DNA of 63,703 nt, filler included, from Bigelowiella natans CCMP2755 (taxonomy: Eukaryota; Protista; Cercozoa): the NCBI GenBank assembly GCA_000320545.1. It is 9 parts of 9 records of this genome, joined end to end, with 100 filler letters (N's around TTAATTAATTAA, not from the genome) between each part and the next. Parts side by side here need not be neighbours in the genome. Positions count along the whole stretch, not along the records: positions 1 to 6,049 come from ADNK01001774.1; positions 6,150 to 10,755 come from ADNK01000520.1; positions 10,856 to 41,009 come from ADNK01000185.1; positions 41,110 to 47,618 come from ADNK01001194.1; positions 47,719 to 50,123 come from ADNK01003421.1; positions 50,224 to 51,636 come from ADNK01002922.1; positions 51,737 to 59,819 come from ADNK01001124.1; 2 more parts are not named here. One strand, given 5' to 3'. The notes beneath the pieces were generated by a model. That model had not been told where the DNA came from. It searched no databases and worked only from the letters and a program-made list of their open reading frames with translations. The position numbers and the translations under genes are program-made. Numbering within the stretch: position 1 is the stretch's first letter; every line of letters starts with the position of its first letter. Below are positions 2,110 through 54,860 of this stretch, piece by piece.

Positions 2110-3117
2110 TCTCAGAGTGTGTTGACAAATGTTGTGGAAGGCGCATGAGCTTCTCGCCATCAAATTAGGATGTTTCAGGATGACAGATGATGCTTAGTTG
2201 GGAAGTCATCCATGTTCAATTTTGCACACTGCAAGTGTCTTGCAACACTTTGGAAATGTAGTTTTTCATCATTGTTTCATTGTTTCATTGTTTCAATTCT
2301 TCATTGTTCATTGTTCAATGCATGGCACATGAAGTGCTTTTCGCAATCGCCTTTGCAGCCTCGCCTTTTTCAGGCTGAATTCAAGTGGTTCCGATTCTTT
2401 CCTTTTGCGTGGGCAATCGTTGCTCGTTTGTTCAAGTCCAACCGCAGTGGGTGCACAGCTAGATCGATGGGTGTCAGGCGCTGCAGCTGTCTCAATGCTG
2501 TTGTCCCGCAGCAGCAACGGAGGATGACAGTGATGGAAAGGTGAGTTCTCTGACACCCCACACTCACCACCATTGTCATCACCTTTTCCTCCACTCTCAA
2601 TCCTTGATGATCGAGAATGACAATTCAGCGGTGATTTCACAGCGCTGTGGCGTTTTCAATTTCACTTGCGAGTTTGGCAACACCGTGCCATCATTGCTGG
2701 CATCGCACGATGGGCCATGACAGGCCACCACGCAAACGTTGGTTGCGTGCACGTCCTGTGATGAGCGAGCCAGCTTGCACGTGTGAGCTCACACCAATGA
2801 CCCGCTAGCCCGCCTGATCTGGTACGTGCGATCCTGTTGCTACGTTGATGGAGGGTGCTGGTTGCTGCACAGCACGAATGACGCTGGTCTTGCAAAAGCC
2901 AATGTGATGTGCACGCGGCGCATGTGTGCACGCAGTTGGCTGCTTCGCAAAGCTAGAAAGGTGGGCACCACGATGAAATGCATCGCAGCGAGTGTGCGTG
3001 TGTACACCTCAACGCCACAATCACTACAATCACTTGTAGTCTTCATGCACACCTAGACATGTGCAGATCACAACTTGAATGCAAGTCCTTCTCAAATGCC
3101 ACAGCGATGGAGAGCAA
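2110..3117. other. TpA-depleted intergenic island 1
   Basis: Hand count gives 12 TA in about 1 kb (4 CTAG, 2 TTAG, 2 GTAG, 2 CTAC, 2 GTAC). TG/CA are abundant and CpG is retained. Confidence 0.85.
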
Positions 3118-3220
3118 GTAAGATTGATGAGCGGCATTAGTTGTTGTTCTAAATCGAACCATGAAGACTATTCCTTACCAGCGTCTAATGGTCCTCCTAA
3201 GCTAAAGGAAAATCTCCATC

Positions 3221-5642
3221 TCAATGCTGAAACATCATTCCTGGGGTCTCATCGTTACTTTTACTAGTTTGTGAGAGAAAACTACTCCCCTGTGACGAGG
3301 GGTGTAGATCAGTGCCCTGGCGATGTAGGTCAACCACGAGCTCTTCTGGAAGCTGTTCTACCCCCCCCAACCCCGAGATTGACTTGCCTTCTGCATCTTT
3401 TCGCCTGCGTTGCTGGATGGCTACGGGATAATACACGTCCGTAGGTTGCACCTAAGATATTCAGGTGGTGTGAATCACACGAGAGAACAATGGGCTGCAA
3501 ACTTTTAACACAGCACAATGACGAAATCGGCCCTCAAGCACGACGATACGAAGCATGTATGCATTACATGGCAACTCAAGTTACGGTGGAAAGCGATCGT
3601 TACGGGTAAATATGAAGAGGGAGAGGGCGTGGAGCGGAGAAAGAGAGAGAGAGAGAGAGAGAGAGAGAGAGAGAGAGAGAAGTATTGAAGAGCGAGACAC
3701 TTCTCATACACGCATATGAACAAGAGTACGGATACACTGAACACAAGCACGCGCATGTGATACCCAGGATATCTTCCCAATATCTATCTCAGCCACGGCA
3801 TCAAAATTGCGGTTTGAGAGCTTGCTTTTGAATTCCTCCAGGTTCCTCACATTATTTCCGAAGCGGTAGCCGAAGAGGATATCCTCCGCACAAAAATCCG
3901 CCACGCGCACAACCGTTTCCTGGGTTGTTTCATCCAAGCCGTTGATGCAAACATGTACCTTTTGCAAAAAAAAAGTTAGATCTTTGAATGTGTCTCACGC
4001 AGCCAAGGAAAGGTGGGTTAATATCGATGCGCTCAATTCAAAAGGAAAAGGCCTGATACATATCCTCGAGTATATTACAGCAGCAGCAACAACAAGCAAA
4101 AGTTATAAAGCAACACAAGTTTGCACCGTGGTGTGCGTCTCTTTACAATCCTCGTGAGACATCCCAAACAGCGGGCTTCCAGGAACAATGTAATGCCTTT
4201 GGCGTTATCAACACAGAAGCTTACCATCACACACATGAACGTGTGCATAAATACTAACATGCAACACATTTACCTGACGTTCCAACTTCCATGGAATCGG
4301 TGAAGCGTACGGGCTTCCAAGTCCAGGAAATAGTTCATGTGGAACACCTCTGGAGAGAGAAATAGCGAACAAATCCAGTTTGAAATTAGGTAATCTATGA
4401 AGCCAGGCACGACACAACACTTCAGGATGTACGTCTTAGTCAAGTCTGAGCTAAATGCTAGCATTGCTGCTACGCTATGATGCTTTGTCGGGTCTTCCTC
4501 CCCTTCCATGAGAAGAATATACGCCACAGATACACACGAACACGAACAAACACATACACACACGCACACACACACACACACACACGCTCACTCACTCACT
4601 CACACAATAGACAACAAGCGATTTGCGGAGGGTAGAGTGTTGACCTCCATTTCTAGATGCTTCATCCTTCAGCAACCACACGCTGCATGTTACATCTATG
4701 AGCTCGCTTAGAGGCCCGTCGGCGTTGACAATTCGGATGTCCAACACAGGGACGTCTCCCCAATTGTGAATCGTCGCGTATCTTGCGAAGATGTAATGCC
4801 ACCGAGGTCGCATAAACTTGGTGTACCTGTGTGTTGCATACATGCGCAGAGCGAAAGGAGGGTGTTTTCGCTTTCTCCCACGGAACGAAGCTGGAAACGT
4901 CTTTGGACTTGTTTGAAATGCTTTTCAAAAGTGTGAGATTCAATTTTTTCTCTGGAACAAGGGAACATGAAAAGAGCGATAGGGGAACGAAATGGAGGAA
5001 GAGGAGGGAGAGGAGGGGGCAGCAACTTACACAATCCCTGCGAAGATTGTTGTGACGAACAGATTGTGGATGCCATGAATAAATACTAACGCATTGACAG
5101 CAAATGAATCTTTGTCAGGCGAAAGACCGCCGTAGCCAATAGTCGTGAACGTTTGGAACGCAAAAAAGACGTCGTACCAAAACCTAAGGATTGATCCGAT
5201 CATGTAACATCGATCGATTCGATTGAAATAGCCCCAGAACCACCACCAACAAAAAAAAACAACGAAGATGAACTACTGCATCCGACTGAAAGCAATAGTT
5301 CTTTCGTAAATGTACAACGGGGAAGGAAAAGAAATCTTGTCTCATTCTCCATTCATTCCTTCAATCATTCTAGACATCCTACTTGTGGTCCTCCTCCGCG
5401 CAGCACCCCCCAACGCCCCAATAGACGAGACCGAATGAAACCGTGGAAATCAAGATATACAGGCTCATCTCCAGCATAGCCACTTGAAGCGAGACTGTCA
5501 ACACATGCCGCAGTAATCTCCCCCCCAATCCAGAAGAAACACCATTGACGTGTCGCACGCGGTAGTCACTCCATCGAGATGAACGCGATGGCCGATTAAC
5601 TGCGCGCTGTTTCTCGAACACAATGCCATTACAGGTTGCCAT
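3221..5642 (-). CDS. Inward-rectifier potassium channel (Kir/KirBac-like), multi-exon; true start uncertain
   Basis: Spliced exons give TM1 (SLYILISTVSFGLVYW), pore and filter (DVFFAFQTFTTIGYGGLSP, exon 5183-5030) and TM2 (ALVFIHGIHNLFVTTIFAGIV). Cytoplasmic-domain motifs follow: YTKFMRPRWHYIFARYATI..VPVLDIRIVN, EVFHMNYFLDLE..SWNVRHYIVPGSPLFGMS and VCINGLDETTQETV...EDILFGYRF. Last-exon stop at 3221. Confidence 0.88.
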
Positions 5643-54391: not shown

Positions 54392-54569
54392 TGTTGAGTA
54401 TAGAAGCGCCGTCACTACGAACATAAGTTTGAGCGGACAGCACGTCCGGATAATGCAGCCATCGCTCTCAAAGCGGTCAATAAGTATTTATCATCGTCGC
54501 CGCAAGAGCGGATAAGCACTGAATGTACGTGCTGCCAAAAGTCACGCTGCGCTGCACTTCTGCTGTGCT

Positions 54570-54860
54570 CGCATTTATCTAGCTATATTCATTAGCTCGG
54601 CCACAAGAACTCGCTAGCGCGTTGTAGGGTCCCGCCTAGCCGCGCATGCACTTGCCTCAGTTGCAACTTTGTGTGTGTGTAACTTCAAATTAGCTTTGAA
54701 TAAGCAAATTTGAATATTATATATACTTTTACATGGTCACCTGCCTTTGCAGTGCACACGCGATGCAATCATACTAGCATAGCAATCATAGCTAGATAGC
54801 ATGCGCGCACACATGCATATCTAGATATGTCCATAAAGATATATGCCTTTCTAGCTTGCC
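54570..54860. other. CTAG-rich island between the convergent TRAPPC8-like and ATAD2-like 3' ends
   Basis: 7 CTAG in about 290 bp, plus the palindrome CATATCTAGATATG at 54816-54829. Confidence 0.55.

Follow-up and report, generated by a model that had tools for sequence, protein, structure and literature searches.

What removed the dinucleotide TpA from parts of the Bigelowiella natans genome? In a stretch of 63,703 nucleotides from strain CCMP2755 (assembly GCA_000320545.1; nine parts of nine records joined end to end, filler included; hereafter the window), three intergenic islands have lost nearly all of their TpA and carry CpA and TpG in excess. A hypermutation of TpA to TpG or CpA has been described in the same species by Mettrop et al. 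(bioRxiv 10.64898/2026.01.13.699255, a 2026 preprint). We put a probability of about 0.78 on the reading that the islands are intergenic DNA of B. natans, at least partly old repeats, from which TA was erased by this known targeted process, with a nuclear adenine deaminase as its likely, if unproven, agent.

Loss of TpA from three intergenic islands

The islands are all intergenic, and the bounds 2110-3117, 12482-13250, and 30481-31620 were used for counting. They are given here without strand:

2110..3117: island 1, a TpA-erased intergenic stretch (12 TA vs 62.8 expected)
12425..13255: island 2, TpA-erased, recognized as a gap in D-TA-H sites, flanked on one side by the 3' end of a + strand gene (identified by eye) and on the other by the start of a topoisomerase I gene
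30481..31620: island 3, TpA-erased, mainly one copy of a ~1-kb multi-copy element with inverted ends (13 TA vs 72.2 expected)

Island 2 likewise holds 13 TA, where its base composition predicts 40.4. Pooled, the islands contain 38 TA instead of the expected 175, 33 of them within TAG or CTA and 18 within CTAG, which reproduces exactly the figures of an earlier note on this DNA (38, 33, and 18, with ~170-180 expected). Elsewhere in the window, the TAG/CTA context accounts for 1093 of 2845 TA (Fisher p = 1.2e-9 against 33/38). CA is raised 1.5-2.0-fold and TG 1.5-1.9-fold over expectation, and CpG stands at 0.74-0.85 of it, in line with the earlier statement that TG and CA are raised and CpG is kept. 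The counts of CA and TG are nearly equal in each island (109/111, 86/87, and 126/121 in islands 1, 2, and 3), and AA/TT, at a ratio of 0.97, is not depleted.

The longest runs free of D-TA-H, that is, of TA with neither a C before nor a G after it, measure 830, 716, 618, and 377 bp and all lie inside islands, the 830-bp run being that of island 2; the best run outside is 315 bp. In 200 Markov simulations (orders 2 and 4) with the remainder of the window as training sequence, no such run was longer than 382 bp. The depletion lies far outside what these simulations give. The three islands listed in the earlier note hold, except that island 2 starts nearer to 12425 and that a fourth, weaker patch at 21975-22420 has to be added.

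Contigs from two DNA runs, X9 and X10, are identical to islands 1 and 3 over all listed pieces (zero mismatches; 30775-30838 and 2249-2266 lie outside these pieces). The two runs and the assembly may not be independent. Because of this identity, we take the island pattern to be real DNA and no assembly artefact.

Self-comparison of the window, in the plain or a TA-collapsed alphabet, revealed no homology among the islands, the sole link being one short match between islands 2 and 3:

13135..13147, + strand: 13 bp in common with the end of the element in island 3, found by motif search

Whole-island alignment of islands 2 and 3 scored 46 (null mean 44.6, maximum 55), indicating no wider homology. 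None of 18 island open reading frames (ORFs) exceeded a curated Pfam cut-off (best E 0.018), and Rfam gave no match anywhere in the window.

Dependence on the base that follows the adenine

We sorted sites by the number of strands on which G follows the A: none (unprotected), one (half-protected), or both (CTAG). In this order, TA is present at 2/152, 6/71, and 4/9 sites of island 1, at 0/98, 3/56, and 10/19 sites of island 2, and at 3/174, 6/76, and 4/10 sites of island 3. Outside the islands, the shares are flat (0.28, 0.27, and 0.32). A per-strand model with one rate for each base at +1 describes the islands with an Akaike information criterion (AIC) of 35.7, compared with 93.9 for a single rate and 51.5 for a model in which only CTAG is spared. 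The fitted rates are 2.2 for A, 1.8 for T, 1.0 for C, and 0 for G against the window background. Against a baseline of CTAG-rich spacers, they are 2.4 for A (95% range, 1.45-3.7), 1.8 for T (1.2-2.7), 0.8 for C (0.45-1.25), and 0.2 for G (0-0.4), and the gradient persists (likelihood ratio 48, 3 degrees of freedom). Statistically, the islands follow a per-strand rule, TAA ~ TAT > TAC >> TAG, which is repeated in each of them. In CTAG both strands have G after A and are protected, and CTAG is therefore what remains. The earlier note had proposed a duplex motif, D-TA-H; the sparing of TAG and CTA that it expressed is real, whereas its duplex form fits worse (AIC 56.1) and TAG does change at a low rate.

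This grading bears on how the change begins. The same hypermutation might start from a base mark at TpA on silent DNA, either an oxidised thymine or a methylated adenine that is later deaminated or misrepaired. Such a mark would explain the sharp edges of the islands, and the attacked base is not readable from sequence, because A to G in TAH and T to C in DTA are one event. However, the better fit of a graded per-strand model over both duplex models is unlike what a palindromic mark would leave, and we regard this origin as distinctly unlikely.

In simulation, the fitted rule alone also lowers the CC/GG and CpG ratios. A separate process that removes CC/GG or CpG, which we considered, is therefore unnecessary and was dropped; the TA rule reproduces the observed CpG range.

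The CTAG-rich baseline comes from four spacers (17300-18100, 21810-23050, 37190-38000, and 54392-55362) that lie behind gene ends, apparently between convergent genes. They carry 12.2 CTAG per kb (tandems collapsed) vs 1.75, are GpC-rich and CC/GG-poor, and have normal TA. Composition was among the grounds on which we picked the four; when 142 tiles were ranked without such bias, 8 of the top 14 overlapped three of the spacers. Their composition is possibly a signature of terminator regions or of old repeats. Considered as partly converted islands, they were rejected (unprotected TA 79/263 vs a background of 891/2893, p = 0.83), with one exception:

21975..22420, no strand: fourth, partly converted patch between an ankyrin gene (+) and RPS15A (-), recognized post hoc by its TA shares

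Here, TA is present at 6/91 unprotected, 13/34 half-protected, and 4/4 CTAG sites. Applied to the four spacers in simulation, the fitted rule reproduces the dinucleotide profile of the islands better than when applied to other starting material, which hints that the islands began as, or among, ordinary gene-end spacer DNA.

The same spacers speak for another view, in which the islands are either repeats poor in TA from the start or extremes reached by chance, with CTAG surviving only through local CTAG richness. Against this view, the simulated gaps fall far short of those observed and the context gradient holds even with the CTAG-rich baseline. Relatives of the repeats in islands 1 and 3 speak to it more directly.

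Repeats in the islands and the direction of change

Most of island 3 is one copy of an element delimited by two inverted ends:

30572..30612, + strand: left inverted end of the island 3 element, with CA at 30582-30583 and TA there in many relatives (inverted alignment)
31555..31589, - strand: right inverted end, with TG at the site equivalent to 30582-30583 and TA there in most relatives (contig depth)

Contig comparison links the two ends by an opposite-strand joint, 30612/31588. Related contigs (80% identity) run along 30508-31355 and 31462-31673, with a summed depth relative to the flanks of ~40x at 30572-30612, ~140-150x at 31555-31589, and ~4-15x over most of 30614-31250, a measure that is no copy number. 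Inverted ends, many copies, and no coding capacity are features of miniature inverted-repeat transposable elements (MITEs), and the sequence suggests a MITE-like element with no recognisable protein. Read by eye, TG borders both presumed ends, which is compatible with a converted TA duplication. Motif scans retrieved no further copies in metagenome contigs (two scans) or viral contigs (one scan), and no autonomous partner was found. The single HMMER match of the longest island 3 ORF (E 3.6e-5), to the translation of a tandem repeat, was judged spurious.

The relatives give the change a direction. At the one equivalent position of the inverted ends, our copy has CA on the left and TG on the right where many relatives have TA; at 31574, T is the letter of relatives in 1469/2502 (X9) and 6344/10094 (X10) depth units. 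Among the best-supported 40 of 60 difference rows, taken from short alignments at 80% identity, 13 of the 17 C>T or G>A rows restore TA, compared with 43.5% expected from island 3 composition (p = 0.006, which is only a guide because the rows are best-supported and non-independent). Furthermore, CA and TG are swapped between island 3 and its relatives at 30680-1, 30868-9, 31065-6, and 30872-3. Aligning copies and polarising them by context, as the earlier note had advised, thus finds relatives that keep TA or hold the other product.

Several observations concern the right edge of island 3. In the run X24, 44 RNA reads match 31555-31589 and then continue in poly(T) on the + strand, suggesting that copies of the element end lie at transcript polyadenylation sites. 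The end at 31555-31588 occurs twice in tandem, with 40 letters between, in one contig each of X9, X10, and X15. An X15 contig spans 31413-31705 without difference. A minus-strand ORF piece at 31584-31700, maybe the last exon of a phosphatase-like gene, enters the island.

Island 1 contains an abundant repeat of a different kind:

2220..2319, + strand: short repeat at the left edge of island 1, with an 8-bp tandem tail at its end (contig depth in X9 and X10)

This repeat (70-100 bp, tandem tail at 2269-2308) reaches a summed contig depth of ~1,500x the flanks in X9 and X10, in 392 and 417 contigs. Its relatives share an upstream consensus motif that we take to resemble a B-box. Together with the tandem tail, this motif suggests that the repeat is possibly the 3' part of an element like a short interspersed nuclear element (SINE). 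The repeat can form a small hairpin, has no Rfam match, and has relatives in presumed-RNA runs. Among the six rows listed, its relatives show TA-type variation at just two sites; at 2259-2260, the change on the TAC strand accounts for 31-33% of depth and that on the TAG strand for 13%. RNA-type contigs also depart from DNA contigs at 2243, 2259, and 2260; these positions were set aside, since editing cannot be read from depth-weighted contigs when the family is large. The adjoining 2352-3117 (~760 bp) has no relative at 80% identity in X9 or X10 and the same depth as the flanks, and it is equally free of TA.

That the 2220-2319 repeat varies at just two TA-type sites fits natively TA-poor repeats. 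However, the islands are not one family, their alignment scores being at or near the null, and the relatives of island 3 keep TA. Hence, the single natively TA-poor repeat family that the earlier note had named as the outcome that would defeat its idea is not what we found, and native composition or chance is very improbable as an explanation.

Each of the four patches directly follows the 3' end of a gene; islands 1 and 3 and the 21975-22420 patch apparently lie between convergent genes. Strands were taken from Pfam for the topoisomerase I, ankyrin, RPS15A, kelch/EGF, plastin, TRAPP-like, and AAA genes and, for the others, judged by eye on the basis of ORFs, splice signals, and RNA cover. RNA guidance and an insertion preference of elements at gene ends are inseparable from one window.

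Elsewhere in the window, introns retain long, pure (TA)n tracts intact. Compound microsatellites, in which (CA)n borders (TA)n to the left and/or (TG)n borders it to the right, are common (11000-11045, 31770-31857, 46440-46527, and 52470-52530). A local direct repeat of ~35 bp is present in two copies at 49896-49978 (by eye). The eight assembly gaps (6050-6149 and seven similar), each composed of two 44-N runs around a 12-bp A/T linker, are joins and not biology.

The TpA hypermutation of B. natans and its possible agent

In 15 mutation-accumulation lines of B. natans, Mettrop et al. report that 231 of 302 new point mutations fell within two integrated viral regions, where 210/211 and 20/20 were A to G or T to C, every one at TpA (10.64898/2026.01.13.699255). 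The rate there was ~1000x background and confined to some lines. The changes arose in clonal cells, including in a silent single-copy region; the two viral inserts measure 186 kb and 25 kb. The preprint counts 124 TpA-poor clusters genome-wide, finds DDE endonuclease and reverse-transcriptase domains over-represented in TpA-poor coding sequences, proposes a defence role, compares the process with repeat-induced point mutation (RIP), and names an ADAT2 homologue as candidate. The ADAT2/ADAT3 candidates are Bn78255 and Bn77986. One of its genes identifies our window as B. natans:

34590..37184, + strand: plastin/fimbrin gene, 100% identical over 216 + 181 amino acids to JGI model Bigna1/46338 of Bigelowiella natans

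This model belongs to the cluster of a 99% hit of the plastin gene. Over the last exon, the plastin orthologues of Lotharella and Gymnochlora are 84-85% identical. Besides the species, the islands share with the published process the low TpA with high CpA + TpG and the conversion of TA to TG and CA on both strands, as seen in the island 3 rows and in equal CA and TG. They pass its cut-offs per window (rho TA <= 0.43, rho CA+TG >= 1.52) with rho TA of 0.19, 0.32, and 0.18 and rho CA+TG of 1.75, 1.67, and 1.73 for islands 1, 2, and 3. A cluster in the preprint needs three successive 1-kb windows; since 1 of 63 fixed 1-kb tiles of our window passes, none of the islands is such a cluster. They measure 0.4-1.1 kb and bear no viral sign, whereas the direct data of the preprint come from the viral inserts. 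As to target type, island 3 and the 2220-2319 repeat are multi-copy and matched no protein or RNA family, and island 1 is for the most part single-copy.

The earlier note had described a regional, two-strand conversion of TA to TG or CA on repeat or relic DNA that spares TAG, and this description is borne out by equal CA and TG, by the polarisation of island 3, and by repeats in two islands. Its claim that the process was undescribed falls, as Mettrop et al. measured it in the same species, mapped TpA-poor clusters genome-wide, already extended it to transposon-like sequences, and proposed the same role and enzyme class. Because the preprint covers nearly all of what the note had concluded, the process must count as known. 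Among the papers listed, our literature search returned no further description of such TpA hypermutation. The main text of the preprint speaks of no TAG, CTAG, trinucleotide, or context, and its Table S2 or Fig. 2B may show a flanking-base rule. The sparing of TAG, or +1 rule, and the small non-viral targets thus appear to be new here and are modest additions.

The RIP of ascomycetes likewise hypermutates repeats regionally, by transitions in a specific context and on both strands, likely in defence. It makes C to T changes and raises TpA, is triggered by sequence duplication in the sexual cycle, and needs a protein of the RID/DIM-2 type. The islands run in the opposite direction, with TpA at 0.18-0.32 of expectation and CpA raised, and the main target of the process in the preprint is single-copy and mutates in clonal lines. 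To call the islands an anti-RIP system, as the earlier note did, overstates the case: we see no sign that RIP is being opposed, and the process is rather RIP-like with the opposite chemical direction.

Deaminases that act on RNA resemble the island process in that A comes to be read as G. ADAR and the fungal Tad2-Tad3-Ame1 prefer, strongly or in part, a T/U on the 5' side of the A (PMC11156358), and amphioxus ADAT2/3 can act on DNA, where ADAT2 prefers GAA and also deaminates C (PMC10354150). ADAR and fungal ADAT differ from the island process in acting on RNA and in accepting or favouring G at +1. The islands are strand-symmetric instead of showing A to G on one strand, and they avoid +1 G, with a rate of 0-0.4 at TAG compared with 1.2-3.7 at TAT and TAA. 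These differences also weigh on the idea that transcripts of the elements underwent A-to-I editing and were reverse-transcribed back into the genome. A U on the 5' side of the edited A is a known ADAT/ADAR preference (10.64898/2026.01.13.699255; PMC11156358), and RNA or presumed-RNA runs contain relatives of both repeats. Yet copying of one RNA strand would yield one product and not equal CA and TG per island, which largely refutes the idea; single-copy DNA and an inverted-end element are also affected, UAG is favoured rather than spared in ADAR and fungal editing (PMC11156358), and the changes in the preprint arise in a silent single-copy region. We give this route almost no weight.

The hypermutation might be the same and its agent an error-prone polymerase, for which one of the Y-family type would be the candidate, that inserts G across from a template T while silent chromatin is being repaired or replicated late. 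This would produce A:T to G:C changes on both strands without a new enzyme class. However, polymerase eta hits AA as well as TA, and AA/TT is undepleted in the islands. The A:T to G:C changes in the viral regions of the preprint are all on TpA (10.64898/2026.01.13.699255). The avoidance of TAG, unlike the deaminase preferences given in PMC11156358 and PMC10354150, is in favour of a polymerase, which we still consider unlikely.

For the reading given at the outset, we picture the following steps. TA has been nearly eliminated and CA and TG have risen equally, with relatives holding TA or the other product at the same sites. Statistically, each strand is hit alone, and the base that follows the A determines the rate (A ~ T, then C, with G near zero). 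According to the preprint, the change arises locally in the chromosomes of clonal cells and affects some lines only. The activity would be drawn to silent repeat or foreign DNA and run over ~1 kb, single-copy neighbours included. An enzyme of the TadA/ADAT fold may convert the A of TA to inosine on transiently unpaired DNA, with replication fixing G. For such an enzyme as the agent, we see a chance somewhat short of even. Deaminase and defence are put forward as hypotheses in the preprint, and so they are here.

Several points weigh against this reading. At 30684, the difference between the copy in island 3 and its relatives belongs to the spared class, and A>G occurs in relatives at the TAG sites 31060 (30/98 depth units, X9) and 2260 (~13%), so that TAG is disfavoured rather than immune. 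Fourteen of the 40 difference rows are transversions. Direction was polarised in island 3 and at two island 1 sites; most of island 1 has no relatives. The rate estimates depend on starting compositions that we assumed, and 38 surviving TA are their basis. In X9 and X10, islands 1 and 3 carry no new change, though few targets remain there. Moreover, the deaminases compared have other preferences, fungal Tad2/3 for A or G at +1, ADAR slightly for G (PMC11156358), and amphioxus ADAT2 for GAA on DNA (PMC10354150).

Tentatively, the mutator may be a general repeat-silencing system, beyond an antiviral role, that strikes small non-coding elements and their single-copy neighbours in gene-end spacers, possibly under the guidance of read-through or antisense RNA. 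The rule it follows may mark a natural DNA adenine-editing enzyme unlike ADAR, fungal Tad2/3, and amphioxus ADAT2. The footprint reaches sub-kilobase non-viral elements that the 3-kb cluster rule of the preprint would miss. The +1 rule offers a handle on the agent, as any candidate enzyme must reproduce it in vitro, and a natural DNA adenine deaminase, if it is the true agent, would be of interest for base editing.

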